NCBI GenBank assembly: GCA_041662745.1
Contig: JBAZRV010000008.1
Location: forward strand, 954 to 32,953
Direction of reading: 5' to 3'
DNA length: 32,000 nucleotides
Origin: Patescibacteria group bacterium
Lineage (GTDB): Bacteria > Patescibacteriota > Patescibacteriia > 2-01-FULL-39-33
Under the pieces are notes generated by a model that was not told the origin of the DNA, searched no databases, and was given only the letters and a program-made list of their open reading frames with translations. Shown one piece after another: positions 15,033 to 30,539 of the stretch; the stretch's first letter is position 1, and each line of letters opens with the position of its first letter. The position numbers and the translations under genes are program-made.

Positions 15033-15048
15033 ACCGCCTCAATGTCAT

Positions 15049-15249
15049 TTAATTAATCAGCTGACTTAACTGTCCGGCAACAGACATATGCTCTATCTCC
15101 TGATCGCGAATAAGCAGTACGGCATCACGTTCAAAAGGATCAGCTAAGCTTTCCAAGAATTCATCATAGAGATTCAAAGCTTGCTTTTCCAGGGCATACA
15201 ATTCAACAAAACTTTCAGCTAGCTCGGCTTTGCTTTTTTTTGTTTTCAT
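15049..15249 (-). CDS. 66-aa all-helical ORF, either independent or the frameshifted C-terminus of the double-PAS protein
   Basis: The ATG at 15249 lies inside the last 35 nt of the upstream ORF. The sequence is helical and acidic and contains EIEH. Confidence 0.45.
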   Translation of the reverse strand: MKTKKSKAELAESFVELYALEKQALNLYDEFLESLADPFERDAVLLIRDQEIEHMSVAGQLSQLIN

Positions 15250-16354
15250 ATTTGATTAATTCTTTAAATTTTTTCTCATGTTCCCGGCTCTCCTCAAGCA
15301 GCTGTTCAAGAAGTTTTTTTATCTTTCTGACCTCAACGGCGCTTAAATCGTAACTGCTTATCTTTGCCAAATAATCAGTAGTTAAGCTCTGCACCAGATC
15401 ATCTTCCAGTTCTACGGCCTCCTGAAATTTTTGCGACCAGCTTTTTTCTGTCGCTGCTGGTTGCTCAACCGAACCCTTCCTAAGTTGTTCTTTAAGCTTG
15501 ATTATCCGCAGTTCCCGTCCGACCATAAGCTCATTCAAACGTTCCAAGTCCCTCATTTTCTCCTTCAAACTATTCTCCGCCAGCCGCCGCTTAGTGATAT
15601 CCAATGTAAAACCGATAACGCCCACGATGTCGCCGGCGGCATCGCGATAAGGGATTTTATCGGTTTGGACCCAGAGAGTTTTATTAGGCAAAACCAAAGT
15701 TTCAATAATATTCCTCTTGGCCTTGCCCATTCTAATTACTTCCTTGTCATCATCCCAATAGGCTTGAGCCTGGTCTTTGCTGAAAAGATCAAACATGGAT
15801 TTGCCCTGAAGCTGTTTCTTAGACATCCCCATTACATCGCTGAAGGCCCGGTTAACGCGGATAAAGCGATTATTTATATCTTTATAAAATATCCAAGCCG
15901 GCACGGAATCAAGAATTACTTCTATCTCCTGCTGCTGCCTGTGCAGAGCGTCTTCTATTTTCTTGCGCTCGGTAATATCACTGATTATACCCACCAAATA
16001 AAAATTTTTATTGCCGCTCTTAAAGACGTTCTTTTTAGTTATGATATTATGCGTGACACCCCTGGCATCAGTGAATAATTCTTCATTGATATTCTCTTTG
16101 CCATTTTTAAACACCATTTCATCTTTACTCCAAAAAACCTTGGCCTCTTTATCCGAAAAAAAATCATAATCGGTTTTACCGATAAGCTTCTGCCGAGGGT
16201 ACCCCATAAAAAGACAGTAAGCATCGTTAAGCAGAATCCAACGATGCTTGCGGTCTTTGACAAAAATCGGATCAGAAACCTTATTAATGATATCCAAAAG
16301 CACTTGCTCATCTTTGATAGAAAAATCAGAAGGCTTTGAAATTGGCGTTAGCAT
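15215..16354 (-). CDS. Double-PAS domain protein with a C-terminal coiled-coil/helical region and no kinase core
   Basis: There are two PAS-like units, ending ISDITERKK and TLDITKRR. No H-box or ATPase motifs are present. Confidence 0.85.
   Translation of the reverse strand: MLTPISKPSDFSIKDEQVLLDIINKVSDPIFVKDRKHRWILLNDAYCLFMGYPRQKLIGKTDYDFFSDKEAKVFWSKDEMVFKNGKENINEELFTDARGVTHNIITKKNVFKSGNKNFYLVGIISDITERKKIEDALHRQQQEIEVILDSVPAWIFYKDINNRFIRVNRAFSDVMGMSKKQLQGKSMFDLFSKDQAQAYWDDDKEVIRMGKAKRNIIETLVLPNKTLWVQTDKIPYRDAAGDIVGVIGFTLDITKRRLAENSLKEKMRDLERLNELMVGRELRIIKLKEQLRKGSVEQPAATEKSWSQKFQEAVELEDDLVQSLTTDYLAKISSYDLSAVEVRKIKKLLEQLLEESREHEKKFKELIKYENKKKQSRAS
15234..15241 (-). other. A8 coding-strand homopolymer at the junction of the double-PAS ORF and the 66-aa ORF
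   Basis: T8 on the plus strand. Deleting one base reads ...YENKK-SKAELAESF... straight through. Confidence 0.6.
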
Positions 16355-16364
16355 AAGGAGGGGG

Positions 16365-16736
16365 TTACTTAATGCCCAATTTTTGCTGGACTTTAACGGC
16401 TACATCGGCGACATTCCAATCCACCTTGACCAAGTATTCAAAAGTTCCCAAGGCCACGGCTTGAGCGACCTTAGCTGAGTCGCTTAAATTACTCAAAATT
16501 ACCACTTCGGCTTTCTTGCCCCACCGATCCTTACGTAACTTGGCTAACATTTCCAAACCGTCCATCTTGGGCATTACCAAATCTAATAGAATTAAATCAG
16601 GTTTCTCTTTCTTGGCTAACCGTAAGCCCTCAACACCGTCTTTGGCAAGTAATACCTTAACCTGCCCGGCGTCAAATTGCGATGACAACGCCTTAAGCAC
16701 GATTGGTTCATCATCAATGATTAACAATTTTTTCAT
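16365..16736 (-). CDS. Stand-alone response regulator receiver (CheY-like, no output domain)
   Basis: 123 aa with the IIDDE acidic pocket, phospho-acceptor LLDLVMPKMDG, ILSNL and YLVK. Confidence 0.9.
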   Translation of the reverse strand: MKKLLIIDDEPIVLKALSSQFDAGQVKVLLAKDGVEGLRLAKKEKPDLILLDLVMPKMDGLEMLAKLRKDRWGKKAEVVILSNLSDSAKVAQAVALGTFEYLVKVDWNVADVAVKVQQKLGIK

Positions 16737-16770
16737 ATTGTATTTTAAATTTATAACCGTTTAACAATGA

Positions 16771-19746
16771 TTATTTAACGGGCAGGGTAAAATAGAAAGT
16801 TGTGCCCTTATTCTCTTTGGAATCAAACCAAATCCTGCCGCCATGCGCTTCAACTATGCCTCGGGCGATATACAGCCCCAAACCTGTGCCTTCCGGCGCC
16901 ACCCCCCTGATGTTATCCGCCCTGAAAAATCTCTCAAAAATACGATGTTGCTGATACTGCGGTATGCCATAACCCTGATCGGTAACGGCTATGGACCAAT
17001 AGTCCCCTTGGCGCTGGCAATCAAAAGTTATTTTAGCTTTATCGGGAGAATACTTAATGGCATTGCTAATCAAATTATTCAGCATTTGGACGATTTTATC
17101 AAAATCAAAAACACAAATAATTTTCCCGTTTAAACCGCAACCAAAAATCATGCTGATTTTCTTTTTATTGGCGGTTAACGTCTGATCTTCTATGGCGCGG
17201 CTAAGGGCTAAACGCAAATCGGCTGGTTTTTTGTTTAAGGTGAATTTTCTTCCCGTCTCAAGATGGGAAACGTCTAACAAATCATTAACCAACTTAATCA
17301 TTCGTTCATTGCTATGATAAATCTGCTCAACAAAATCACGTTGCTCCTGATTCAACTTGCCAATCTTCTCCTTTAACAGCAATTCGCCAAACCATTTAAT
17401 GCCGGTTAAAGGCGTCCGCAACTGATGTGAAGACATGGACACGAATTCTGATTTTAAACGATCAATTTCCTTGGCCTTGCTGATATCGCGCAAAATAGCC
17501 ATGTCGGCCGGTTGACCATTTAAAACAACAACTGAACTATTGGTTTCTACCGGTATGGCTTTGCCGTGCTTATCAATAACGGCGAATTCATAACGAGTAT
17601 CCACCCTCTCCCCCTGCATGCGACGCTTGTAATTGGAAGCGACCAGGCTCTTATATTGCGGAGCGATAAAATCAACCATGGGTTTGCCGATGACGTCTTG
17701 AGGAACCATGCCGGTAATCTTCTCTATGGCCGGATTGGCATATTTAACTATACCCCCCTGAATCAGTATAACGGCATCATTACTGCGTTCCACCAGGATA
17801 CTGTATCTTTCCTCCGATTGCTTGATTTCCCGTTCCCAGATCTTATGCTGAGTAATATCTTCAACAACTGTCAAAAAATATAGCGGCTTATCACTATTGT
17901 TTTTAATTAAAGTAGCGTTAACTCGGCCATAAACAATTTTTTTGTCTTTCCTGATATAACGTTTGTCCACGCTATAAACAGAAATCTTACCTTTAAGCAA
18001 CAATTTGACTTTTTCTATATCCCTTTTGACTTCATCGGGATGCGTAATATCGGCAAAGGTCAGCTTCTCAAGTTGGTCCTCGGAGTAACCCCAAAATTTA
18101 ACAGCAGCCGGATTAGCACTAATGAATTTATTATCCAAGCCGACCAAGACAATGGGTATCGGGCTGTTTTCATAAATCGCTCGCAGGCGATCTTCGCTGT
18201 TAACCAGCTTTGTTTCTGTTTGGTGACGCGCAGTAATATCGCGGATGTTGCACTGAACGACTTTGGTGCGGCCAATATTATAGACATTACTGACAAATTC
18301 CACGCTGATCGGCTTGCCGGACTTGGTTCTTAAAGGCAAATTATCATAATGGACATACTTCTTTTTCTTTAAAATTTCAAAAGATTTCTTGGAAGCCATT
18401 ATGTCCTTAAATAACCCGATTTCCCACAATTTCTTCTGTAAAAATTCGTCTCTTCCATAGCCCAGCATCTCAATTAAATACGGATTAACCTCTTCAATTT
18501 CTCCGGTCTCAACATTAAGAATCAAAATGCCGTCCTTGGCCGCTTCAAACAACCGACGATATTTCTGCTCTGACTTAACTAAACTTTTTTGGATTTTTGT
18601 ATCCTTAGTGACATCAGTGAAGCGCCAAACCCGGCCTACGATCTTACCGTCAATTTTTTGCGGTAAAGACAAACGATCAAAAACCCGGCCATCCTTAAAA
18701 TAAACAGTATCGGAACTTTTATTTGCCGGATGTTTATAAAGGTAGTTTACTTTGGTTAAAAATTCTTTGGCATCGGTAAGCTGGCTCACGACATAAGACA
18801 ACAGCTTCTTGTCATTCTTCGTCTTCGCTAATTTCTGGGGTATTTTCCATAACTCCAAAAATTTTTCATTATAAAATGACACTCTGCCCCGGCGATCAAT
18901 CACCAGGATGCCATCCGATGAAGTATTTGTGATTGAATCCAACAGGGAAACATAATTTTTTACGGTTATTTCATTTTTTTTAGTTTCGGTAATATCGCGG
19001 GAAAAACCCATGACATTGCTTATTCGGCCTGACTGATCCCTGACCGGCGTTAATTGCGTACTCAGCCAAACATCACCATGGGCAAAATGAGAAAGATCTT
19101 CCCGATAAGAGTGTTGACCGCTACGGAATACCTTATTAAGGTTAGCTTTTTGCCGTTTGGCCACGGCGGGCGGAAACAAATCCTTAACGCTTTTACCGAC
19201 AATGTGAATCGGCTGGGCATTAAACTGTTTGGCTCCGAATTCATTAACATAAGTTATCCGACCGCCCCTATCAACCAAGTAAATACTGTCATGAGCCATC
19301 TCAGCTAAGGTTTTATAAAGCACTTCGCTTTCTTTTTTTTCGGTAATATCGCGAAAAAAAGCGATTAAGCAATCGCGAGAATTAATCTTTATTCTGCCAA
19401 AGCCGGCAGAGACGAATTTAATTTTTCCCTTCTTGGTTATTATCTGCAAGTCCGCGCTTTTATCAAAACCCTTGCCTTTAGCCAATTGCGTAAAAACTTT
19501 TAGCGTTTTTTTAATGCTGTTTGCCGGATGCAAATGCCTGATGGACAACTTAAGCAATTCTTTTTTGGCATAACCGAATAAACGGCAGGCGGCCGGATTA
19601 GCATCAATGATCTTGGTTGACAAGTCAGCAATCACAATGGCATCAGCCGTGTTATTAAACAACATCCGATAATTATATTCGCCACCGGCCATCAGTTCGT
19701 CCGGGGTGGGGCAGGATTGTTTTTGATTAAAAATCAGCCAATTCAT
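16771..19746 (-). CDS. Cytoplasmic multi-PAS (about six PAS units) sensor histidine kinase
   Basis: Six repeats end in the characteristic DIT motifs: FRDITEKK, SRDITETK, FTDVTKD, IRDITARH, VEDITQHK and LRDISKAK. The H-box is EFVSMSSHQLRTPL. The ATPase motifs are DQGYGIP and GTGLGLYIAR. No TM helix is present. The track start at 19773 is TTG, and I prefer the ATG at 19746 (MNWLIF). Confidence 0.9.
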   Translation of the reverse strand: MNWLIFNQKQSCPTPDELMAGGEYNYRMLFNNTADAIVIADLSTKIIDANPAACRLFGYAKKELLKLSIRHLHPANSIKKTLKVFTQLAKGKGFDKSADLQIITKKGKIKFVSAGFGRIKINSRDCLIAFFRDITEKKESEVLYKTLAEMAHDSIYLVDRGGRITYVNEFGAKQFNAQPIHIVGKSVKDLFPPAVAKRQKANLNKVFRSGQHSYREDLSHFAHGDVWLSTQLTPVRDQSGRISNVMGFSRDITETKKNEITVKNYVSLLDSITNTSSDGILVIDRRGRVSFYNEKFLELWKIPQKLAKTKNDKKLLSYVVSQLTDAKEFLTKVNYLYKHPANKSSDTVYFKDGRVFDRLSLPQKIDGKIVGRVWRFTDVTKDTKIQKSLVKSEQKYRRLFEAAKDGILILNVETGEIEEVNPYLIEMLGYGRDEFLQKKLWEIGLFKDIMASKKSFEILKKKKYVHYDNLPLRTKSGKPISVEFVSNVYNIGRTKVVQCNIRDITARHQTETKLVNSEDRLRAIYENSPIPIVLVGLDNKFISANPAAVKFWGYSEDQLEKLTFADITHPDEVKRDIEKVKLLLKGKISVYSVDKRYIRKDKKIVYGRVNATLIKNNSDKPLYFLTVVEDITQHKIWEREIKQSEERYSILVERSNDAVILIQGGIVKYANPAIEKITGMVPQDVIGKPMVDFIAPQYKSLVASNYKRRMQGERVDTRYEFAVIDKHGKAIPVETNSSVVVLNGQPADMAILRDISKAKEIDRLKSEFVSMSSHQLRTPLTGIKWFGELLLKEKIGKLNQEQRDFVEQIYHSNERMIKLVNDLLDVSHLETGRKFTLNKKPADLRLALSRAIEDQTLTANKKKISMIFGCGLNGKIICVFDFDKIVQMLNNLISNAIKYSPDKAKITFDCQRQGDYWSIAVTDQGYGIPQYQQHRIFERFFRADNIRGVAPEGTGLGLYIARGIVEAHGGRIWFDSKENKGTTFYFTLPVK

Positions 19747-19769
19747 TATAATATCTAAATATTTATATT

Positions 19770-22700
19770 TCAAACATTAGCTGACTGCCTTTTTCTGACC
19801 CGATACAGCCAGAAAATGACAGCGACTAAGACAATTAAGGTTATAACTGTCGTCTGCCAGTTTAGATAACGATAAATCATTACCCAAAAGTTGCGCTTGA
19901 CCGTAAAGGTGCTGACCGGACTGGGACGGCTCTTGACCTGCGCCGTTGAATCCAGGGTAACGGCAAAAACAGTATGCTGGCCCGGGGCCAGTTCTGTTAT
20001 ATCTTGCGAGTGATCAATACGCCAATTGCCCTGACTGTCAGCGCGCGTACGATAAATCAAAGCCTGATCGCTATGAATATAAATGATAACATCCCGATTG
20101 GGCAAAGAGACGCCGGAGAAACTCAGAGTATCGCCCGTAACCACGGTCTGCACGTTGGTAACTTGCGGTACCGGGATGCCGGCCAATTCTACGGCTTGAG
20201 CGTTCAACTCCACCAACTCTGCCGTTGGAGTCGGTCCAGTGGGGATGGCGGCAGCGGTTATTGCCGGCACAGCCGGCGTCGGCAGAACCACGACCTTATT
20301 AACAGCCACACTGGCTGAATCGCTGGTGTTGCCGGCCTGATCGCGACTGACAGCGCCAATAATATGTTGGCCGTCAACCAGCGCCGAGGCGCTGGGCAAT
20401 CGGAAACTCCAAGCGCCGGACGAATCGGCGGTTACGGTAAAGCTGCTGCGGTTGTCTAAAGTGATAATCACCTCAACGAGCGGTTCAGCTACGCCGGTGA
20501 TTATTGGTGTCGCTTCAATTATGGCTGAATTATTAGCCGGATTTAAAATTATCGGAACCGCCGGCGCCACACTGGTAATTATCAGAACAACCGGATCAGA
20601 AACCTGGCTGATATTCCCCGTTCCGTCAGTCGCCCTGACCGTTAAGGAATGGTTGCCCGGTAAAAAATTAAAAACCTGATTGAATCGGCCGCCATTGTCG
20701 GTAGCATTGCTTAATTGAGCGAACAAAACTCCGTTGTCAAACAAGTCAATACGCGATCCCGGTTCAGCCAAACCGCCGATAATAGTTATTGTGTTGTTGG
20801 TCGGCGAGTCCAGCGGATTCAAAAGCGGCTTAACCGGCGCAGTCGTATCCGGCACCAAAATGGCACCACCGCCGACCACTGGCGGGATGACGGGCGGAAC
20901 AACCGGAGGAGTTACCGGAGCAAAGACGTTAAGCTGGGTAACCGTCGCTTCATTGCCGTAATCGTCTATGGCCCAAATCTTAACATAATAATTGTCAGTG
21001 ATATTCAAACCGGTGATGACCGTGGAGATGGCTAAGGGATTGGACAAGTTAGCATCGTTAACCACGCTCCATTTGCTGGCCGCGCCCGTGCGATTTATGA
21101 CATCGCTTTCCGTTGCGTCATGCCATAACTCGTAGTGATTGAAATTAGCATCGGTTGTCGCTTGCCAATTCACGGTAACAGTCGTGGCGGTTTCCGAAAA
21201 CTTGCTCAAAGAAGAAAGCCCCAAAGGCGCTCCCGTATCAACGGAAAAGTTAGCTGATTCATAATACGCGCTGGCATTGCCAAAACTGTCAGTGCCGCTA
21301 AAACGCACTCGCATATTGGAATTTTCTTGATTGATGAAATCCGCGCCGGCGTTCCAAATAATTGCTTTATTATTGCCCGCCGTTACCGTCCCCAAATCAC
21401 CGGTCGCAGCAACCTTAGTAACCGTCCAAGTCAAACCGCCGTCAGAAGAAATATCCCAAGCAACATCAGCAGTCTCGCCCAAATCATAGCTTATCGCAAC
21501 ATTGTCCGTGCCAATGGTTTGGCCGGCTGAGATGCCGGAGATAATCGGGGCCTTAGTATCCAAAGCAAAATTGCCGGAAGAGTCATAAGCGCCTTGATTG
21601 CCGAAATAATCTTTAGCGCGGACGCGAACTCTCACCGTCGACAGATCTTGACCGGTAAAATCCGTACCGGCGGCCCAAGTGAAGGTCTTAGTCCCGATAG
21701 TCTGGCCGGGACCGATTTGGCCGCTTCTGGTTGTCGTGGGCACCGTCCAAGTAATGCCGCCATCATCGGAAATGCTGAATTCAATCAGATTGCCGGCCGG
21801 CGTAATATCCGTTAAGTTATAATTTATAACCACATCGGTCGTGCCGGCCGATTGGCTGGCAGTAACGTCACTGACTGCCGGGCCTTTAGTGTCAATGGTA
21901 AAATTATCAGAAATAACGATTGAACCGACGTTGCCATAACGATCCGTGCCTTGGAGTTTTATTTTAACGGCAGAATTTTCTTGATTAGGCAGGTCAACTT
22001 GCGGATTCCAACTGATACTCTTGCCGGCGCCGGCCGTAACGTTACTGCCGATATCGCCAGTTGCCGTAGTAAGAGCGACGGTATAAGTTAAACCGCCGTC
22101 AGCGGAAATTAATAAGCTAACGGTGTTGCTGGCACCGGAATTATCAGATAAATCATAAGTGATTGCGGCCAAGCCCGTACCCGGAGCCTGCGTTAAATCA
22201 ATATTGGAAACAACCGGTCCCAGGGTATCCGCATAAAAAGCCGAGGAAGCCGCCAAATTACTGTCAGCCAAAGCATCCGAGGACTTCAAGCGCGCATAGA
22301 CCGTGGAATTCTCCTGATTGGGCAAATCAATCGCTATGTCCCAGGCAAAAACGTAAGCCGTACCGGCGGAAGCGAAAATTAGACTGGAAGTGCCGTTTGA
22401 ACCCACCCCTAATTTTTCGGTCATAGCCTGCCAGTTGACATTATCAATAGAATACTCAAAAACAGTTAAGTCATTAGTGTCATTTTGCGCGTCCGCGCCC
22501 GTATAATTGATTAATACGTAACCGCCGCTGGCCTGCTGAGCTGCGCTTGAGATATTAATTGAGGGGGCGGTATTAGCAATACCGGCCACTGTGGAAAAAT
22601 CGGATTCGGAAGAGACTGAATGCGCGGCATCACTCGGATTGCGGGATTTGATTTTAAAGCTATAGTTAGCCACCGGCGAACTCAAGCCATTAATGGTTAC

Positions 22701-24617
22701 TTGACCGCTGTTACCGCTGGTTTGGCCCCATTGGCCGATGCCGGTGCCCAGTGTCTGCCAAACCGCACTGGCGCCTAAGGTACCATTGCTTTGCACGTAT
22801 TGATCGGTGAAAACTTCATAAATGGCGTACGGCACATCACTGGCCTCGCCAAAAGCCGGATTGATCGTTACATCTACCGCAGTGTTCTGCGGATTATTAA
22901 CTGTGGGCGCTGAGGGCGTATATGGCTTGACATATTTATAACTCGCCGTAGGAGAGGTGTTCTCATTTATCCTGGCGTGGCCGTAATTATCGGTTTCTAT
23001 AATTTTAACCTTGGCAATATAGTCATGGCCGGTGAGCGTACCGCCAGCCGGTACGGCTTGGTTAGCCGGAGTCGCAGTATTACTTTCTCCCGTGGTGGTG
23101 GCCGAATAGGCGTTGCCGCTAAAAGCGACAAAAAACTCATTGGTAATCGGATTAGCCTCGGTAAACGACCCGCTGACAATCGCATCAGTGTCGCCGGCTT
23201 GCGGCTGAGCCGCCAAATCGGCAGTCGCCAAGATCGCCGGAGCCAGGGTGTCCACGCTAAAGACGCCGGCTAAAACGGCATACGCGCTGCTATTGCCATA
23301 GGTATTGGTGCCGCGAATGCGGACTTTCATATTGCTGTTTTGCTGGCTATTGAAATCCACTCCCGGATTCCAAGAAACCGTCTTACCAAGTCCCGGTGCG
23401 ACCCCATAACCGACAGCGCCAGTTAAGGTGGTGGTAACCACACTCCAAGTGACGCCGCCGTCATCGGAAATATCGACACTAATAACCACATTATCGCTAT
23501 CAAATAAATTGTAAGTTATAGTGACATTATCGGAACCGACAACCTGCGCCGCCGTTAGGCCATTAATCACTGGGGCTTGAGTGTTAACGGCAAACAGGTT
23601 GGAAGTGACATTGCCGGTCGCATTGGCGTAAGCGTCAACGGCTCGCAAGCGAACCTGCATATTATTAACCTGCTGATTGGGAAAATTCGCTCCAGCATCC
23701 CAAGTGATGATCTTACCGTTGCCGGTTGTTATGCCCGAGCCAATGGCGCCGCTAACGCTTGAAGAAGCGACATCCCAGGTACTGCCTCCGTCCGAGGATA
23801 TATCCATAGCCACAACAGAACTGTTAGCATCGCTAAAATCGTAACTTATGGACACTAAACTGCTACTGACGACCTGAGCCGCGGCAACATTGGCAAAAAC
23901 CGGGGCCTTGGTATCAACGGAAAAATCAGCAGATGAAACAAGCGTTCCGATATTGCCAAAATTATCCCTGGCTCCCGCTCGCACTCTGACCGTACCCGAT
24001 TCTTGGCCGGAGTAATCAACACCGGGATTCCAGTTGATAGCCTTGCCGCTGCCCGGCACGACATTATCTCGAACATCGCCGGAAGCCGTGGAAGTCGCGA
24101 CAGTCCAAGTTGATCCGCTGTCCGAAGAAACATCAAATTCCACATAAGAATCGGATAAATCGGTCAAATTATAACTTACGGATACATTATTTGAATCGGC
24201 ATCTTGGCTGGCGGTGACCGAGGCCGTTACGGGGTTTTTGGTGTCAATAATAAACGCCGCGGAAGCCGTTATGCCGCCACTGCTGGTGCCGTCGTTAGCC
24301 TGCAATCTGACAAAAACCGTCTCATCTTCGGTGTTAGGCAAATCCGCGCCCGCGTCCCACATAAAATCATGCGCGGTTCCGGAAGAAACAAAAGTTAAAT
24401 CGGTTTTTCCGTCCGAACCCACCCCCGTTTTCTCGGTCATAGCATGCCAAACGGCATTGTCAGTGGAATATTGATAAATGACCAGGGTAGTGGTTTCGCT
24501 TTCCAAATCCGAACCGGTATAATTGATAATCGCATACTTGGTGCCGTCGGCAGTCTGAGCAACCGAATCAATGGCAATGGTCGGCGACTGGTTGACTGAA
24601 GAGGCGCTGCTGGACAA
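19770..24617 (-). CDS. Giant surface protein, C-terminal portion
   Basis: 1615 codons. The contents are Asp-box beta-sandwich repeats, FN3-like modules, a Pro-rich linker, three Ig-like domains and a C-terminal TM anchor. The nominal start is an internal TTG with no signal peptide. The frame is open upstream to 24752 and continues the repeat pattern of the upstream ORF. Landmarks include six Asp-box modules (SSDGGSTW type), an FN3 (TVTVNWQ...YYVKIWAIDDYGNEA), PVTPPVVPPVIPPVV, three Ig-like units (G.H...A.D.AGN type) and the TM helix VITLIVLVAVIFWLY followed by RVRKRQ. Confidence 0.85.
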   Translation of the reverse strand: MSSSASSVNQSPTIAIDSVAQTADGTKYAIINYTGSDLESETTTLVIYQYSTDNAVWHAMTEKTGVGSDGKTDLTFVSSGTAHDFMWDAGADLPNTEDETVFVRLQANDGTSSGGITASAAFIIDTKNPVTASVTASQDADSNNVSVSYNLTDLSDSYVEFDVSSDSGSTWTVATSTASGDVRDNVVPGSGKAINWNPGVDYSGQESGTVRVRAGARDNFGNIGTLVSSADFSVDTKAPVFANVAAAQVVSSSLVSISYDFSDANSSVVAMDISSDGGSTWDVASSSVSGAIGSGITTGNGKIITWDAGANFPNQQVNNMQVRLRAVDAYANATGNVTSNLFAVNTQAPVINGLTAAQVVGSDNVTITYNLFDSDNVVISVDISDDGGVTWSVVTTTLTGAVGYGVAPGLGKTVSWNPGVDFNSQQNSNMKVRIRGTNTYGNSSAYAVLAGVFSVDTLAPAILATADLAAQPQAGDTDAIVSGSFTEANPITNEFFVAFSGNAYSATTTGESNTATPANQAVPAGGTLTGHDYIAKVKIIETDNYGHARINENTSPTASYKYVKPYTPSAPTVNNPQNTAVDVTINPAFGEASDVPYAIYEVFTDQYVQSNGTLGASAVWQTLGTGIGQWGQTSGNSGQVTINGLSSPVANYSFKIKSRNPSDAAHSVSSESDFSTVAGIANTAPSINISSAAQQASGGYVLINYTGADAQNDTNDLTVFEYSIDNVNWQAMTEKLGVGSNGTSSLIFASAGTAYVFAWDIAIDLPNQENSTVYARLKSSDALADSNLAASSAFYADTLGPVVSNIDLTQAPGTGLAAITYDLSDNSGASNTVSLLISADGGLTYTVALTTATGDIGSNVTAGAGKSISWNPQVDLPNQENSAVKIKLQGTDRYGNVGSIVISDNFTIDTKGPAVSDVTASQSAGTTDVVINYNLTDITPAGNLIEFSISDDGGITWTVPTTTRSGQIGPGQTIGTKTFTWAAGTDFTGQDLSTVRVRVRAKDYFGNQGAYDSSGNFALDTKAPIISGISAGQTIGTDNVAISYDLGETADVAWDISSDGGLTWTVTKVAATGDLGTVTAGNNKAIIWNAGADFINQENSNMRVRFSGTDSFGNASAYYESANFSVDTGAPLGLSSLSKFSETATTVTVNWQATTDANFNHYELWHDATESDVINRTGAASKWSVVNDANLSNPLAISTVITGLNITDNYYVKIWAIDDYGNEATVTQLNVFAPVTPPVVPPVIPPVVGGGAILVPDTTAPVKPLLNPLDSPTNNTITIIGGLAEPGSRIDLFDNGVLFAQLSNATDNGGRFNQVFNFLPGNHSLTVRATDGTGNISQVSDPVVLIITSVAPAVPIILNPANNSAIIEATPIITGVAEPLVEVIITLDNRSSFTVTADSSGAWSFRLPSASALVDGQHIIGAVSRDQAGNTSDSASVAVNKVVVLPTPAVPAITAAAIPTGPTPTAELVELNAQAVELAGIPVPQVTNVQTVVTGDTLSFSGVSLPNRDVIIYIHSDQALIYRTRADSQGNWRIDHSQDITELAPGQHTVFAVTLDSTAQVKSRPSPVSTFTVKRNFWVMIYRYLNWQTTVITLIVLVAVIFWLYRVRKRQSANV

Positions 24618-27600
24618 AGCGCTATCACTGGAAGCGGCATGGGCTCCATCACTGCTATTGCGCGATTTAACCTGGAATTGATAATGGTAGGAATCGAGGA
24701 TTAAACCGCTGATATTAACTTTGCCGGCTACGCCTGAATAAAATCCCCACTGAAAAAAAGCCGGTACCGCTCACCTGCCAAACAGGACTGGCGCCTAAAG
24801 TTCCGTCGCTCTGCACATATTTATTCTGGGAACCTTCATAAATCGCGTATTCCAAACCATCGGTTTCTGCCGGATTTTTATTGATTAAAACATCCACCGT
24901 GCCAACGCCGGGATTGTTAACGGTCGGCGCCGACGGCGTGTACGGCTTAACATACTTATAGGCTGAATTAGGCGAGCCATTCTCATTGGTTATAGTCTGG
25001 CCGTAATCATCCGTATGAGTGATTTTGACTTGGGAAATATAATCATTACCGTCCAAAGTGACGCCGACAACCGTAGCCTGATCGGCCGGCGAAGCGGTAT
25101 TGACGCTTCCGGCAGTGGCGGAACCGTAAGAACCGCCGTCAATCGCTACATAAAAATCATTGGTATTGGGGTTGGCCTCGGTAAAAGAACCGCCGATCAA
25201 TGTTGTTGTTGCTCCGGCCAAAGGCTGGGCTGACAAATTAGCTATGACGCTAACGGCCGGCGGCAGAGTATCAAGAGAAAAATCGGCTGAAGGCACATTG
25301 GCCGATTGATTGGCAAAAATATCCAAAGCCCTGACCCGCGCTTGCATCGTACTTAAATTTTGATCGGGAAAATCAACGGCCGCATTCCAGGTGACGGTTT
25401 TGCCCGTTCCCGGGGTTATGTTGGCGCCGATCTCACCACTTAGGGTTGAGGTGGCCACTAACCAAGTTGACCCGCTATTGTTAGAAATATCCAATATTAC
25501 CAAAGAATTGTTCTGATCGGCTAAATCATAAGTAATTGTTACGCTTGTTCCGCCCAAAGGTTGCGTGGCTGAAACATTGGTTAGGCGCGGGGACTTAGTG
25601 TCCAAAGAAAAATCAGAAGAGGCTAAAGCGCTATTATTGCTAAAACTGTCGGTCGCGGTCAAACGGAATTGCATGTTAGTCTTTTCCTGATCATTATAAT
25701 CGGCGCCAGCGTCCCAAGTGATGGTTTTGCCGGATCCGGGTATGACTGCTACGCCCAAATCGCCAGTTGCCGAAGAGGTGGCCACAGTCCAAGTTGATCC
25801 CCCGTCGGCGGAAACAGCCAATAATAGATTAGCATTGCCGGCGTCTTCGGAAACATCATAATGAAAAGTAAAAGTATTGGCATTGCCGTCTTGGCCGGCG
25901 GAAAGATTAGACAATACCGGCGCATGCGTATCAACGGTAAAGATTGCGGAACCGCTATAAGATCCCTGATTGCCAAAGCTGTCCCGAGCTCTAACCCGCA
26001 CCAGGACATTGGTATTATATTGATTGTCATAATCAGCTCCGGCATTCCAAGCAACGCTTTTGCCAACGCCCGGCGTTACCCCTGAACCGACGGCGCCGGT
26101 TAAGCTTGAGGTGGCGACAGTCCAGGTTGACCCGCCATCGCCGGAAATATCTATCTGAATCAAAGAGCTGTTAGCGTCGGTTAAATTATAAGTTATGGCC
26201 ACGGTTCTGGCGCCGGCGTTTTGGCTGGCGGTTACATCCGAGACAACCGGAGCCTTGTTATCCAAAGAAAAATTCGCCGAAGCGACTAAACTGCCGTCAG
26301 TCAAGGTGTCGTTTCCTCTTAAACGAATCTTGGCTGTGGTTGTTTCCAAGCTCGGTAAATCCGCGCCCGAATCCCAAACAAAACTATAAGCGCTGCCGGT
26401 CGGCAAAAATATCAGATTAGCCGTGCCATTACTGCCTGCGCCGGACTTCTCTGTCATGGCCTGCCAACTGGAGCCGTCAACGGAATACTCGTAAGCGGAT
26501 AAATAAGTAACATCGCCCTGGCCATCCGTACCCGTATAAGCAATGGGGCTGTACTGCGAGCCGTCTGTTGTTTGGGCATAACTGTCTAAAACAATGCCGG
26601 GGGCGGTATTGGTGATTTGCGCCGTAGCGGAAAAAGCCGAGTCCGAAGACGCCGCATGGCCGGCATCACTGGGGTTGCGCGACTTAACCTTAAAAATATA
26701 ATTAGCCACCGGCGAAGATAAGCCGGTTATTCTGACCGTACCGGCCGAACCGGTATTATTGCCCCATTGGCCGGAACCGGTGCCGATAATCTGCCAAACC
26801 GGGCTGACGCCTAAAGTGCCGTCGCTCTGCACATATTTGGAAGTCGTGGTTTCAAATAGAGCGTATTGCACATCACCGGCTTCGCCGGCGTGCGAATTAA
26901 TTGTCAAATCCAAACGCGTGGTAACGGGATTGCTCAAGGTCGGGGCTGACGGCGTATAAGGCTTAACATACTTATAAATGGAATTCGGAGTTAAATTTTC
27001 ATTAACTCCCAGGTTGAAGTAATCATCGGTATGAACAATCTTAACCTGAGAAATATAATCATTGCCGTCCAAAGTGGCGCCGACAGCCGTGGCAAGATTA
27101 GACGGAGTAGCCGTATCACTGTCGCCGGCCGTAGATGAGCTGTAACCGCCTCCGTCAATCGCCACATAAAAATGATTGGCATCGGGATTAACCTCGGTAA
27201 ACGATCCGCCGATTAAAACCGCAGTGTCGCCGGCGTTGGGTTGAGCTTGCAAATCAGCCGCGGTTAATGTCGCTGCCGGCAAAGTATCCAAAGAAAAATT
27301 AGCCGAGGCGGAATAAACGCCCTGGTTCTGCCACTTGTCCTTGGCCCGGATGCGCACTCGCATATTGCTTTTCTGTTGGTTGGGATAATCCGCGCCGGCA
27401 GTCCAATAAATTGTCTTGCCATTGCCGGCCGTTACTCCCGCGCCGACAGCGCCGCTAACGCCGGTTGCCGGTACCGTCCAAGTATCTCCGTCATCGCCCG
27501 ATATTTGCATCTCTACCAAAATATTATCGGCGGTATCATCAAATAAATCATAAGTGACGGCCACTGTCGTTGTGCCCAAGGGTTGAGTGGCTAAAACATT

Positions 27601-27966
27601 GGAAACGGTGGAAGAAACATAATCAACGGTGAAAACGGAGGAAGTGGCATAAATGCCATTGCCGATGCCGTCATTAGGCCGTAAACGAACATAAGTGGTG
27701 GTAACGACGTCGCCCAATTGCGAACGGGCGTCCCAAACGAAAGTGTGGGGCGTACCGCCGGAAGAAGCGGGCAAGCCGGAAACTCCGCTATGGGCCGGAT
27801 CGGTGGTGGAGGCGGTCATAGTCACCGCGTCGGCAAAGGTGCCGGATAAGGAATACTCATAAGCCGTCAAACTGGATATATCGTCTTCCGCGTCTTGCAA
27901 ATTATAATTGACATGGACATAACCATAAGTTGTGTCTTGCGCCGGCGCCACAGATTGCACCTGGGG
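21234..27966 (-). repeat. Intragenic coding repeat array of ~110-aa modules nested in a ~2-kb super-repeat
   Basis: There are ten Asp-box modules following the pattern DTxAPv...Y.L.D.....isxDGGxTW.V.....G..G..v..G.GK.i.W.ag.D...Q....m.vR.r..D..gN. There are four copies of an SxDxxxW variant module (YEYS.D...W.AMTEK.G.GS.G). There are three copies of a YKYVKPYTPSAPT / FN3-like block. Approximate super-repeat boundaries are 26617-27966, 24590-26616, 22569-24587 and 21234-22568. The copies are clearly diverged at the DNA level. Confidence 0.85.
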
Positions 27967-29316
27967 TCGCTGATTTTGCGTGTAAGTAATGGTGATATTA
28001 TCCAAAATCACCTGCTGAGTGCCATCGCTCGACAAGTAAGCGCGCCATTTTATTTGATTGGTAGAAGTGGTGAATTTAGAAATATTGGCGTTAACATCGG
28101 TTGCTGTATTATAATCAGTCGTTAAGGTGGTGGTCGCCCAAGCTGAGCCGTTGTAATATTGCCAATTAGACCCGTCATCAGCTGACAATTGATAATAAAT
28201 TTCTCCGCCGTTTTTAGTCGCTGTTTCCACGAAAGAATTCCAACTTACCGTCTTGAGCATCGTCAATGAGGCGACTGGAGTAGTTGTTGGCTTATCGGAA
28301 GCATAAGCATGAGTGGTTTTCGACCAATCCAACTGGATATTGTCAAAACCAACCGTATAAGGACCAATATTAGAACCGCCGGTTTCCAGCCAAACAGCTA
28401 ACTTAAGATAATAAGTGCCAATAGCCGTTACCTTGGAAGAAACATCCAAATTGCTGACCGAAGTCCAACCTTGGGTAGCGGTTATTTCTCCCGACGACCA
28501 GACCTCTTGGCCGATAGTCGGCGCGCCGGTGCCAGTATCAATAAAAGCGTAAACCTTAAAGGTTATGGGCGGATTGGGAGTAGAATCATAAGCTGTAACA
28601 TGATAATCAAAACTTACAGTTGCTGTCGGATCGGTAACAGTGGTGGTAAAGCCCTGCCGCCAATAACCGCCTAATTCATCATCTTTGCCGGACGGCGCGC
28701 TGATATTTACCCAGCCGCCGGGATTGCCGCCAGTCGTAATCCTAGCTCCGGTAATATTAACCTCGCCCCCTCCCTGGCCCCAATCGGCATAAGTCCAACC
28801 GGTGGTATCGCTGTCAAAACCGGGGTTGGTGATGTTGCCACTATCGGTCGTACCATTATCTTTTAATTGAGCTACCCCGCCGGTTACCTCAATTTTGGCA
28901 GGGTCATAAGTGTAATCGCCGGCGTTGTCAAAAGTCCAATCCTGCGTGTCGGCCAAAATCTGAATTGCGCCCAAAAAAATAAAAGATAAGATGCCGACGA
29001 CCAAAATTTTCAAAACAAACAGGCCTCCCGCGCCGCCTGCAGTGGCCAAACTGATGCGCCGCCTGACGGTGTAAACCCGCAGAGGCTTAACGGCTTTCTG
29101 CCGGCTGGGAAAAATCATTCCTTGCTCTTGCAATCGGTCCGGCGGAACCAACAGGTACATGGGCAAGGAGACAACGGCAAACACGACTTCTATCGCCAAT
29201 AATTCTACGGCTAAAGGCAGGACTCTGTACCATTGTCCGGTTTTAACGACTTTTTGACGCAAACCGAAAACATAGCCGGAATAAGAAAAAAATAGATTTA
29301 GCCAGCGCTTAGACAT
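24715..29316 (-). CDS. Giant surface protein, N-terminal portion
   Basis: The contents are an N-terminal membrane module, a CBM-like head and Asp-box repeat modules. The ATG at 29316 (MSKRWLNL) is preferred over the track TTG at 29376, because it starts 2 nt after the upstream stop and aligns with MKNKWLNL of the neighbouring paralog. There are two hydrophobic segments, an NPGFDSDTTGW jelly-roll-like region and four Asp-box modules. The ORF ends in out-of-frame residues (FSVGILFRRSRQS) right after a T7 run. Confidence 0.85.
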   Translation of the reverse strand: MSKRWLNLFFSYSGYVFGLRQKVVKTGQWYRVLPLAVELLAIEVVFAVVSLPMYLLVPPDRLQEQGMIFPSRQKAVKPLRVYTVRRRISLATAGGAGGLFVLKILVVGILSFIFLGAIQILADTQDWTFDNAGDYTYDPAKIEVTGGVAQLKDNGTTDSGNITNPGFDSDTTGWTYADWGQGGGEVNITGARITTGGNPGGWVNISAPSGKDDELGGYWRQGFTTTVTDPTATVSFDYHVTAYDSTPNPPITFKVYAFIDTGTGAPTIGQEVWSSGEITATQGWTSVSNLDVSSKVTAIGTYYLKLAVWLETGGSNIGPYTVGFDNIQLDWSKTTHAYASDKPTTTPVASLTMLKTVSWNSFVETATKNGGEIYYQLSADDGSNWQYYNGSAWATTTLTTDYNTATDVNANISKFTTSTNQIKWRAYLSSDGTQQVILDNITITYTQNQRPQVQSVAPAQDTTYGYVHVNYNLQDAEDDISSLTAYEYSLSGTFADAVTMTASTTDPAHSGVSGLPASSGGTPHTFVWDARSQLGDVVTTTYVRLRPNDGIGNGIYATSSVFTVDYVSSTVSNVLATQPLGTTTVAVTYDLFDDTADNILVEMQISGDDGDTWTVPATGVSGAVGAGVTAGNGKTIYWTAGADYPNQQKSNMRVRIRAKDKWQNQGVYSASANFSLDTLPAATLTAADLQAQPNAGDTAVLIGGSFTEVNPDANHFYVAIDGGGYSSSTAGDSDTATPSNLATAVGATLDGNDYISQVKIVHTDDYFNLGVNENLTPNSIYKYVKPYTPSAPTLSNPVTTRLDLTINSHAGEAGDVQYALFETTTSKYVQSDGTLGVSPVWQIIGTGSGQWGNNTGSAGTVRITGLSSPVANYIFKVKSRNPSDAGHAASSDSAFSATAQITNTAPGIVLDSYAQTTDGSQYSPIAYTGTDGQGDVTYLSAYEYSVDGSSWQAMTEKSGAGSNGTANLIFLPTGSAYSFVWDSGADLPSLETTTAKIRLRGNDTLTDGSLVASANFSLDNKAPVVSDVTASQNAGARTVAITYNLTDANSSLIQIDISGDGGSTWTVATSSLTGAVGSGVTPGVGKSVAWNAGADYDNQYNTNVLVRVRARDSFGNQGSYSGSAIFTVDTHAPVLSNLSAGQDGNANTFTFHYDVSEDAGNANLLLAVSADGGSTWTVATSSATGDLGVAVIPGSGKTITWDAGADYNDQEKTNMQFRLTATDSFSNNSALASSDFSLDTKSPRLTNVSATQPLGGTSVTITYDLADQNNSLVILDISNNSGSTWLVATSTLSGEIGANITPGTGKTVTWNAAVDFPDQNLSTMQARVRALDIFANQSANVPSADFSLDTLPPAVSVIANLSAQPLAGATTTLIGGSFTEANPNTNDFYVAIDGGSYGSATAGSVNTASPADQATVVGVTLDGNDYISQVKITHTDDYGQTITNENGSPNSAYKYVKPYTPSAPTVNNPGVGTVDVLINKNPAETDGLEYAIYEGSQNKYVQSDGTLGASPVWQVSGTGFFSVGILFRRSRQS
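24753..24759 (-). other. 7-nt homopolymer (T7 on the coding strand) causing the frameshift that splits the giant gene
   Basis: With T6 the reading is ...WQVSGTGFFQWGFYSGVAGKVNISGLILDSYHYQFQVKSRNSSDGAHAASSDSALSSSASSVNQSPTIAID. This reproduces the motif series GTGxGQWG / ANYxFKxKSRNPSD / SSxSxFS seen in the two other copies. Confidence 0.85.
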
Positions 29317-29318
29317 AG

Positions 29319-30140
29319 CTAAAGAGTTAATATGGTTAAGAAAATTCCTAATAAGATGATAATAATCACCGACCAATTGGCCAAGGAATCAATATTCTTG
29401 GCGATTAAATCAAACCAAGTGGAAGTTACTTTGAAATATTGGGTCGGCGCAGTCTCGCTCCTGGTCCCCTGCTGTTGATTGTAACTAAAAACCAGCACCG
29501 AATGATTGCCCTCGCTTAAACGAAAATTGCTTTGCAGTTGTTCTATCCGCCAGTTGCCGGCTGAATCCGCATCGGCCGTATAAACCGCCGTCTGCTGATC
29601 CGACAACAATAAAACAACCGTAGCCAGCGGTTGTCCAACGCCTGAGAAGACGTAATTGCCTCCCCTGATTTTTTTGACTTGTCGCAATTCCGGCCTCGCC
29701 ATAGTGTTTACTACGCGAGCCGTCTGGATTCCCGTATCAGCGGCCACCAATTCCTGTTGCGTAATGTCGGCCGGCTGTAAATCGCCTACCGAATAAAGTT
29801 GCAAGGGACCGAAAACGGTCGGTGTCAAAACAATAATCAATAATTTTGCCAGCCAAACCAAAGCGATAACGCCAACGCCGGTAACTGTTAGGATGCGGCG
29901 TAAATTATAATCAAAATTCACTTGGGCATAAGACCCTTGGTCGGCGAAATAAGCCGTAACGTCGCGAGACTTCAAGGTCAGATATAACGGAAGAGAGGTC
30001 ACGGCTAAAAATATCTCCCAGAAAAAAAGTAGGAAAATATTATAAACTGCCTCCAACCCAGTTTGCCCTACGATAAGTTGTTTGCGATTATAGATGCGGT
30101 TGGTTAAAAGCAATACGAGATTTAACCATTTATTCTTCAT
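29319..30140 (-). CDS. 273-aa membrane protein, a miniature paralog of the giant protein
   Basis: It consists of the N-terminal membrane module, one Ig-like domain and the C-terminal TM anchor. MKNKWLNL, AVTSLPLYL and LRRILTVTGVGVIALVWL align with MSKRWLNL, AVVSLPMYL and VRRRISLATAGGAGGLFVL of the giant. FSGVGQP...SDQ...ADSAGNWRIEQ...EGNHSV...YFKVTS...ANWSVIIIILLGIF aligns with the giant C-terminus FSGVSLP...SDQ...ADSQGNWRIDH...PGQHTV...TFTVKR...LNWQTTVITLIVLV. Confidence 0.8.
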   Translation of the reverse strand: MKNKWLNLVLLLTNRIYNRKQLIVGQTGLEAVYNIFLLFFWEIFLAVTSLPLYLTLKSRDVTAYFADQGSYAQVNFDYNLRRILTVTGVGVIALVWLAKLLIIVLTPTVFGPLQLYSVGDLQPADITQQELVAADTGIQTARVVNTMARPELRQVKKIRGGNYVFSGVGQPLATVVLLLSDQQTAVYTADADSAGNWRIEQLQSNFRLSEGNHSVLVFSYNQQQGTRSETAPTQYFKVTSTWFDLIAKNIDSLANWSVIIIILLGIFLTILTL

Positions 30141-30152
30141 CTATTGTAGTAT

Positions 30153-30536
30153 TTAAGTGCTTAAAATTTTCTCAACCTTGTCTTTTAAGACGGATAAGTC
30201 CGTATCAGCCTTAATAAAATAATCCCTGGCGCCCAAATCCTTGGCTTTCTTAATATCTTCTTCATCGCCCAAATTAGACAAAACGATTACCGGCGTGGCT
30301 CGTAAATTAGTATTGGCCTTAATATTCTTAAGAAACTCAAAACCGTTCATTTTCGGCAATAACAGATCAAGCAAAACAACATTCGGCTTGGTTCTTTCCG
30401 CCATGTGCAGGGCGGTTTCACCGTCAGTGGCGGTAGCGATAGTAAAGCCGCCTTCATGAAAAACCAGATACAGCGCTCTTAATAGAATTTCATCGTCTTC
30501 AACTATCAAAACTATTTTTGTTCCTTCTTTCGCCAT
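30153..30536 (-). CDS. Stand-alone response regulator receiver
   Basis: 127 aa with LIVEDDE, VLLDLLLPKMNG, VLSNL and YFIKAD. There is no output domain. Confidence 0.9.
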   Translation of the reverse strand: MAKEGTKIVLIVEDDEILLRALYLVFHEGGFTIATATDGETALHMAERTKPNVVLLDLLLPKMNGFEFLKNIKANTNLRATPVIVLSNLGDEEDIKKAKDLGARDYFIKADTDLSVLKDKVEKILST

Positions 30537-30539
30537 ATT

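Follow-up and report, generated by a model that had tools for sequence, protein, structure and literature searches.

What does a bacterial protein with eleven Asp-boxes do, when ten of them sit one by one in tandem modules that no sialidase profile matches? The question is raised by a 32,000-nucleotide stretch of DNA (the window hereafter; positions 954 to 32,953, forward strand, of contig JBAZRV010000008.1, assembly GCA_041662745.1) from a Patescibacteria group bacterium. On its minus strand lies the largest gene of a genome of about 1 Mb (about 1% of that genome), encoding a giant surface protein of about 3,183 amino acids (aa) when read through a single frameshift. We find that its Asp-box modules are a new immunoglobulin (Ig)-like domain family of a familiar kind, and that the repeat region is probably most of the extracellular stalk of a membrane-anchored giant attachment fibre, in which the Asp-box would be structural.

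Repeat architecture and predicted fold

A pattern search of the read-through protein returned 11 Asp-box matches, as compared with 0.09 expected from the amino-acid composition of the protein. The boxes lie at aa 380, 608, 1060, 1171, 1280, 1732, 1842, 1952, 2406, 2518 and 2625. The first of these is the box (LSADDGSNW) that the first-pass annotation, made from the sequence alone, had placed in a head region; the other ten fall in a run of 20 tandem modules of ~110 aa (21234-27969 on the minus strand; residues about 453-2696), and every canonical motif that had been quoted for ten Asp-box modules was recovered in the minus-strand translation. From box to box the distance is 107-112 aa within a block and 452-454 aa from one block to the next. 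With a terminal fibronectin type III (FN3)-like module there are 21 tandem sandwich modules in all, plus Big_13 domains, and cysteine is absent from the whole read-through protein (amino-acid tally).

The modules are nested in a higher-order unit: one variant (var) module, three Asp-box modules, one Ig-like module and one FN3-like module, in this order. A four-part unit of ~675 aa had been proposed; the measured length is about 673 aa, with two complete copies (units A and B, 49% identical over 672 aa), a short first copy (aa 452-904, consisting of var0, Asp-box module 1, Ig-like 1 and FN3-like 1) and a truncated last copy, just as described. Short conserved DTxAP linkers join the stalk modules head to tail. 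Pairwise identity among the Asp-box modules is 34-53%, and copies of the var, Ig-like and FN3-like modules are 47-67% identical as proteins and 54-68% identical as DNA, except for the more divergent var0 (32-34% and 48-49%, respectively). An assembly duplication was considered and rejected, because the DNA identity between copies is this low and because each copy has its own orthologue in other species.

With a hidden Markov model (HMM) of the module, the ten Asp-box modules score 139-156 bits (E values of 1e-43 to 1e-49 in the genome search), and a profile search of the 1.02 Mb, 98% complete genome found the module confined to the giant gene. All four var modules score 15-24 bits against the same profile, three of them at an E value of about 1e-7, and their box is one residue short (S-x-D-x-x-x-W) or lost. 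On this profile evidence the homology of the var modules to the Asp-box module is genuine, though distant.

The AlphaFold2 model of super-repeat B, computed from 14 aligned units of this and related proteins, is all-beta and consists of six separate sandwiches of 7 strands (mean predicted local distance difference test score, pLDDT, 91.1; predicted template modelling score, pTM, 0.53). For one Asp-box module, modelled from 90 aligned modules, the pLDDT is 97.4 and the pTM 0.88. High local confidence combined with a modest pTM is the pattern expected of independent beads on a string, and the stalk is predicted to be a string of separate 7-strand beta-sandwiches. The choice between beads on a string and a single beta-propeller had been set beforehand as a test of the first-pass annotation, and the predicted structures side with the beads. 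Foldseek searches of PDB with the super-repeat gave Ig/FN3 chains (contactin-2, leptin receptor, PTP-delta and myosin-filament proteins), the Bap BSP domain and SbsC; no propeller is among the matches listed for the super-repeat or for the single module. The matches listed for the single module (e.g. the SrpA adhesin, PapD/FimC chaperones, a titin Ig domain, intimin D00-D0 and an Omp28 domain) are generic Ig-like folds, none at E <= 0.001 (TM-scores 0.36-0.62, E >= 0.0066), and viral structures gave only generic FN3/Ig matches (E >= 0.011). The Ig and FN3 labels given earlier to the modules therefore stand at the level of fold only, since no Pfam model reaches its cut-off on those modules.

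Relation to named families and distribution

Pfam and NCBIfam searches with the whole protein and with 90 single Asp-box modules gave no match above threshold for the Asp-box, var, Ig-like or FN3-like modules. When the 90 modules were scanned singly, the sub-threshold matches were to BNR (33 modules), Reelin_subrepeat-B (17), Mo-co_dimer (15) and, weakly, Cbm74 (12). The matches to BNR, Reelin_subrepeat-B and Mo-co_dimer are due to the Asp-box itself. BNR is a 12-residue motif model (14.9 bits on the giant protein, cut-off 27; E >= 0.006 on single modules), and Mo-co_dimer is the sole match that covers most of the module (residues 25-98; 16.3-17.4 bits). Reelin_subrepeat-B also matches the head, with 20.7 bits for a cut-off of 27. 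CHB_HEX_C was matched in distant relatives alone, where none of the stretches is significant by itself and the best one is confined to the box region (profile positions 35-52). Sequence searches of PDB with 10- and 90-row module profiles gave alignments to sialidases, reelin, sulfite oxidase and pullulanase that are limited to the box region. The FN3-like modules have no fn3 (PF00041) match, only weak ones to Fn3_Dep-1_3rd (E 0.27) and CRLF2-like_D2 (E 0.022). Named families appear in the C-terminal domains: Big_13 (PF19077) scores 39.5 bits over three stretches (cut-off 27) and the NCBIfam model Ca_tandemer (NF033510) 47.5 bits, just under its cut-off of 50; Big_13 matched none of the 90 singly scanned Asp-box modules.

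Because it falls below every profile threshold, the Asp-box module is outside all named families: it constitutes a new domain family, for which Pfam and NCBIfam have no matching model. That no described repeat family would claim these modules was the other point on which the first-pass annotation had staked its case, and neither the profile nor the structure searches found one. The novelty is modest, however, as Ig-like domains with one Asp-box are already known from sulfite oxidase, chitobiase and reelin. The dimerisation domain of sulfite oxidase/dehydrogenase (Mo-co_dimer, PF03404) and the C-terminal domain of chitobiase (CHB_HEX_C, PF03174) are Ig-like (E-set) domains with one Asp-box hairpin (PMC2716378). 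Our module resembles them in being a ~100-aa beta-sandwich with one canonical box, but it reaches only 16-17 bits against Mo-co_dimer (cut-off 22.7), and the two known domains occur singly at the ends of enzymes whereas this one is found in tandem arrays; structures of both are absent among the 50 Foldseek matches listed for the single module. In reelin, Asp-boxes lie at interfaces between modules (PMC2716378). Like reelin, the giant protein has several Asp-box beta-sandwiches in a higher-order repeat, which in reelin builds a rod and here would do so too. Unlike reelin, which is eukaryotic and has larger jelly-roll subrepeats and EGF modules, it has 7-strand Ig-like domains and no cysteines, so that a disulphide-bonded EGF module, and hence the A-EGF-B unit of reelin, is ruled out; the likeness is in the box only.

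Public annotations of homologues (P0005 and others) include 'exo-alpha-sialidase' and 'Transcriptional regulator'. On the giant protein there is no match to BNR_2, to a sialidase family of Pfam or to a Sortilin-Vps10 profile, the only related match being that of the BNR motif model below its cut-off. Given these missing sialidase matches and the structure predictions, the sialidase label is a motif-driven misannotation.

We searched a 10-sequence module profile against 1.84 billion cluster representatives (50% identity clusters). At E <= 1e-3 there are 4,663 matched proteins, of which 1,585 also pass E <= 1e-10, and a single protein can have as many as 30 matched stretches. Close relatives all belong to the Candidate Phyla Radiation (CPR: Magasanikbacteria, Uhrbacteria, Buchananbacteria and Parcubacteria); outside it, the module is found, among others, in proteins of Rifleibacterium, Wallbacteria and Gemmatimonadota. 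The usual layout among homologues is 1+3, with four Asp-box modules; about a dozen of them have 7-11, and in other family members the count varies from 4 to about 30. The contexts vary as well: some carriers, e.g. a Candidatus Rifleibacterium protein, are pure arrays with a 107-aa period, some have other super-repeats of about 470-485 aa, an FG-GAP propeller head precedes an array of about 15 copies in three proteins (P0063-P0065), and in three distant ones (P0164, P0176 and P0186) a single copy lies N-terminal to an FGE-sulfatase (formylglycine-generating-enzyme-like) domain. In these carriers, too, Pfam finds no more of the module than fragments of the box. The signature derived from 461 distant modules reads Y.L.D ... 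YS.DGG.TW ... G ... G ... W.S..D ... R.TP.D, the W before.S..D being present in 100%; the residues conserved across the broad family are thus the box, a tryptophan, glycines and acidic residues. Among 33 genomes of the same family the module is present in five: ten copies in each of three, four copies in another and a single copy in the fifth. A phylum-wide sample of 150 genomes has two carriers.

Conservation of the layout and a frameshift

Three relatives with ten modules (two of the same genus, one of another genus) have uninterrupted frames of 3,201, 3,198 and 3,194 codons. In the single-module tree the modules cluster by position across species (10 label changes, for a minimum of 9 and 30.4 in shuffles); positions are well supported across species and the branches that link different positions are poorly supported. 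In the whole-unit tree type A and type B units form separate clades with 100/100 support, so that block duplication is supported by this tree and not by the single-module tree. Since modules group by position and the A and B clades are separate, the layout predates these species and copies have not been homogenised. Against the same-genus orthologue, dN/dS (the ratio of nonsynonymous to synonymous substitution rates) is 0.06-0.15 per module. The ten-module layout is held fixed by selection across two genera, and the proposal of an old, maintained expansion is borne out by the positional orthology together with the low dN/dS. Conservation is lowest in the head (63% identity to the same-genus orthologue, as compared with 79-91% for the stalk modules, and a dN/dS of 0.19); its fast evolution fits a ligand-facing tip.

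As written, the DNA contains two long minus-strand open reading frames (ORFs) in different frames (24715-29376 and 19770-24617), because a run of seven T on the coding strand, with one extra base, shifts the frame inside the second FN3-like module. The first-pass annotation of this feature names neither its strand nor the frameshift. Apart from this site the protein has no further stop, and past the break 1,666 codons remain open. In the same-genus orthologue the site is in frame and encodes GTGFFQWG. Three contigs from other samples (ERZ27249449, SRR18595301 and SRR6484324), 99.98% identical to the window, have the identical T7 run and the same split into genes for 1,533 and 1,615 aa. The frameshift is real at the DNA level. 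Past the frameshift dN/dS is 0.098, which does not exceed the upstream value of 0.137; downstream selection is thus not relaxed, and the break is either recent or bypassed. The three contigs share two differences from the window, at 25924 and 25954, and one of them has a third at 16972. The two shared differences are the only ones within the gene; both fall close to where Asp-box modules 2 and 3 meet, and the three assemblies agree with each other there. Strain variation could explain them, as could a consensus artefact between repeats.

A candidate attachment fibre and other readings

In the reading we prefer, a CPR bacterium (Magasanikbacteria/Uhrbacteria-like, with a genome of about 1 Mb) would build a stalk from independently folding beta-sandwich domains of ~110 aa. 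Ten of these are members of the widespread Ig-like family with one Asp-box hairpin and four are their divergent var homologues, alternating with Ig-like and FN3-like domains in the fixed unit of ~673 aa. A sandwich is roughly 4 nm long, so about 25 of them would give a reach of about 85-100 nm, and a rod of this length would hold the fast-evolving N-terminal head away from the cell, while the C-terminal helix would anchor the fibre, which would probably serve to attach the bacterium to a host cell or a surface. By analogy with reelin and sulfite oxidase, we infer a structural role for the Asp-box: a hairpin that would stabilise its sandwich and perhaps form part of the joint to the neighbouring module, and not a sialidase-type catalytic element. 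The conserved acidic residues (D1, D29, D77, D94 and N98) could bind Ca2+ as in other adhesin stalks, and low identity between neighbouring modules may guard against misfolding and recombination. A more far-reaching proposal, which we put forward tentatively and consider doubtful, is that the large, unnamed family (at least 4,600 clusters, from CPR and several more uncultivated phyla) with the signature Y.L.D ... YS.DGG.TW ... W.S..D ... R.TP.D builds a rigid, possibly Ca2+-dependent inter-domain joint, and that in this CPR lineage the strictly conserved 1+3+3+3 layout is a ruler that sets the distance between episymbiont and host.

Among known systems, the closest in overall plan are the fibrillar adhesins, whose stalks are made of tandem Big, FN3, Rib, CnaB or SdrD-type domains (Monzon et al. 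2021, PMC8286594). The giant protein shares with them a long tandem Ig-like chain between a terminal head and a putative membrane anchor, where theirs is a membrane or wall anchor, and the Big_13 domains next to this putative anchor belong to a listed fibrillar-adhesin stalk family. It differs in that its main stalk domain is outside Pfam and NCBIfam, its putative anchor is a plain C-terminal helix and not an LPxTG motif or a type I secretion system (T1SS) signal, and its head has no recognised adhesive domain. Many adhesins have near-identical repeats; here, in contrast, the copies have diverged (34-53%) and there is no concerted evolution. Hierarchical repeats are known from the FIVAR-GA units of Embp and from the Ig/FN3 super-repeats of eukaryotic titin, and like titin the giant protein has a fixed higher-order unit with positionally equivalent domains. 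In the parts of the Vampirococcus lugosii study that we draw on, giant membrane proteins of 1,392-4,163 aa with WD40, PKD, DUF11, integrin and fibronectin domains are described (PMC8080830), and such giant CPR membrane proteins are proposed there as host-attachment structures. Our protein is similar in being predicted to be membrane-bound, with domains of the interaction or adhesion type and a proposed part in host recognition and attachment; the same parts of that study describe no Asp-box Ig-like array.

Several points weigh against a host-attachment fibre. All functional claims are read from architecture; the pTM of 0.53 fits independent beads and is silent on the stiffness of the predicted chain; and no adhesive domain of Pfam or NCBIfam is matched above threshold in the head. 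The gene, moreover, is frameshifted in this genome and in the three other assemblies, so that a full-length fibre requires slippage at the T7 run to restore the frame, a rescue route known from homopolymer runs. It is thus conceivable, though on balance somewhat improbable, that the gene is dead in this genome and the stalk is not made, because the N-terminal product of 1,533 aa would lack an anchor and the remainder would not be secreted: the break recurs in assemblies from different samples and the orthologues of relatives are intact, but 1,666 codons are still open downstream and dN/dS there is no higher than upstream. Another difficulty lies at the N-terminus, where hydrophobic segments are present too, so that the protein might be tethered at both ends as a loop or scaffold. 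Such an envelope scaffold (a loop or outer-layer spacer with the super-repeat as a fixed-length ruler) would account for the hydrophobic segments at both termini and predicts the near-constant ten-module layout and length (3,194-3,201 codons) seen across two genera; the adjacent 273-aa ORF, with a C-terminal motif that is similar by eye, would suit it as well. We nevertheless think it unlikely: the second N-terminal hydrophobic stretch could be a signal sequence, cleaved or uncleaved, the stalk evolves more slowly than the head, and fast evolution is usual for distal binding tips, and with 4 to about 30 modules in relatives the length is not fixed family-wide.

The Asp-box modules might themselves bind ligands such as glycans, making the array a multivalent lectin and not an inert spacer. 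Asp-boxes, short ones included, do occur in several carbohydrate-binding modules (CBMs) and glycosidases (PMC2716378), 12 out of 90 modules have weak Cbm74 matches, and the single fusions to FGE-sulfatase-like enzymes in distant relatives are what an accessory domain would give. Every CBM match is far below threshold, however, and in CBM32 the short Asp-box, on the side away from the sugar site, is regarded as structural (PMC2716378); the family-wide conserved residues look like a structural set, outside of which the sequence has drifted freely (34-53% identity between modules). We regard a lectin array as quite unlikely. A sialidase- or Vps10-type beta-propeller, in which the boxes would mark an enzyme or receptor domain, can be dismissed almost entirely. 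It is favoured by the NCBI name 'exo-alpha-sialidase' of one homologue and by the sub-threshold BNR matches. Beta-propellers with Asp-boxes (GH33 sialidases, Vps10/sortilin and GH74) are closed rings of 6 to 10 four-stranded blades. Propeller blades are about 40-70 aa long with one Asp-box per blade, whereas here the boxes are 107-112 aa apart, one per sandwich. In a propeller, the box lies between strands 3 and 4 of a blade (PMC2716378); AlphaFold2 gives separate 7-strand sandwiches (pLDDT 91-97), no propeller is among the listed Foldseek matches, and BNR_2 and the sialidase families of Pfam are not matched. The propeller is rejected at the level of structure prediction.

The attachment fibre remains the reading that we favour. 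There are few clues to the attachment of ultra-small CPR bacteria to their hosts, giant surface proteins being one of them, and a coherent, widespread family without a model is a clean target for a new family model and for structural work. No new principle is involved: stalks of Ig-like domains, sandwich folds with Asp-boxes and hierarchical repeats have all been described before.

The features of the gene are listed in the table. The C-terminal hydrophobic helix and the basic tail were read by eye from the translation, and no sortase motif was seen.

Features of the giant surface-protein gene (positions in the window; modules given in order of translation)
Feature	Position	Strand	Basis
Giant surface-protein gene, whole	19770..29322	(-)	ORF lists, translations, orthologues
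N-terminal membrane or signal region, aa 1-125, two hydrophobic stretches	28948..29322	(-)	by eye from translation
Non-repeated head, aa 126-451; Asp-box LSADDGSNW in second half	27970..28947	(-)	pattern search, Pfam
var0, box-less divergent homologue of Asp-box module	27625..27969	(-)	module HMM, 15 bits; alignment with var1-3
Asp-box module 1 (ISGDDGDTW)	27286..27624	(-)	pattern search and module profile
Ig-like module 1 (GSFTEVNP...)	26959..27285	(-)	three-copy alignment, 55-67% aa identity
FN3-like module 1 (YTPSAPT...KSRNPSD)	26611..26958	(-)	alignment
Super-repeat A, aa 905-1577	24591..26610	(-)	module coordinates; 49% identity to super-repeat B
Super-repeat A: var1	26263-26610	(-)	
Super-repeat A: Asp-box modules 2-4	25933-26262, 25603-25932, 25273-25602	(-)	
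Super-repeat A: Ig-like 2	24943-25272	(-)	
Super-repeat A: FN3-like 2, site of frameshift	24591-24942	(-)	
T7 run on coding strand, inside FN3-like module 2; one extra base shifts the frame	24753..24759	(-)	sequence read directly
Super-repeat B, aa 1578-2249	22575..24590	(-)	translation; AlphaFold2 model
Super-repeat B: var2	24246-24590	(-)	
Super-repeat B: Asp-box modules 5-7	23916-24245, 23586-23915, 23253-23585	(-)	
Super-repeat B: Ig-like 3	22923-23252	(-)	
Super-repeat B: FN3-like 3	22575-22922	(-)	
Truncated last unit, aa 2250-2694 (var3 and Asp-box modules 8-10)	21240..22574	(-)	
Last unit: var3	22230-22574	(-)	
Last unit: Asp-box modules 8-10	21894-22229, 21561-21893, 21240-21560	(-)	
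Terminal FN3-like module, aa 2695-2800; 15-24% identity to the three super-repeat FN3-like modules	20922..21239	(-)	
Pro-rich linker, Big_13 / Ca_tandemer-like Ig domains, C-terminal hydrophobic helix, basic tail and stop, aa 2801-3183	19770..20921	(-)	

Directly upstream of the giant gene there is an ORF of 273 aa with hydrophobic ends (29319-30140, minus strand), for which no Pfam match was found and which precedes the giant gene in other assemblies too. Its C-terminal motif (GNWRIEQ...GNHSVLVFSY) resembles one in the last Ig domain of the giant protein (GNWRIDH...GQHTVFAVTL). The giant gene is flanked (12657-19773 and 30153-30539), all on the same minus strand, by a stand-alone response-regulator receiver gene on one side and on the other by genes for multi-PAS histidine kinases of 1,000 aa, 379 aa and 791 aa, the last with dCache/HAMP. 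The G+C content is 0.50-0.52 across most of the giant gene (20001-28000), as compared with 0.40-0.44 in the neighbouring genes, which probably reflects its Thr/Ala/Ser/Gly-rich composition and not a foreign origin.

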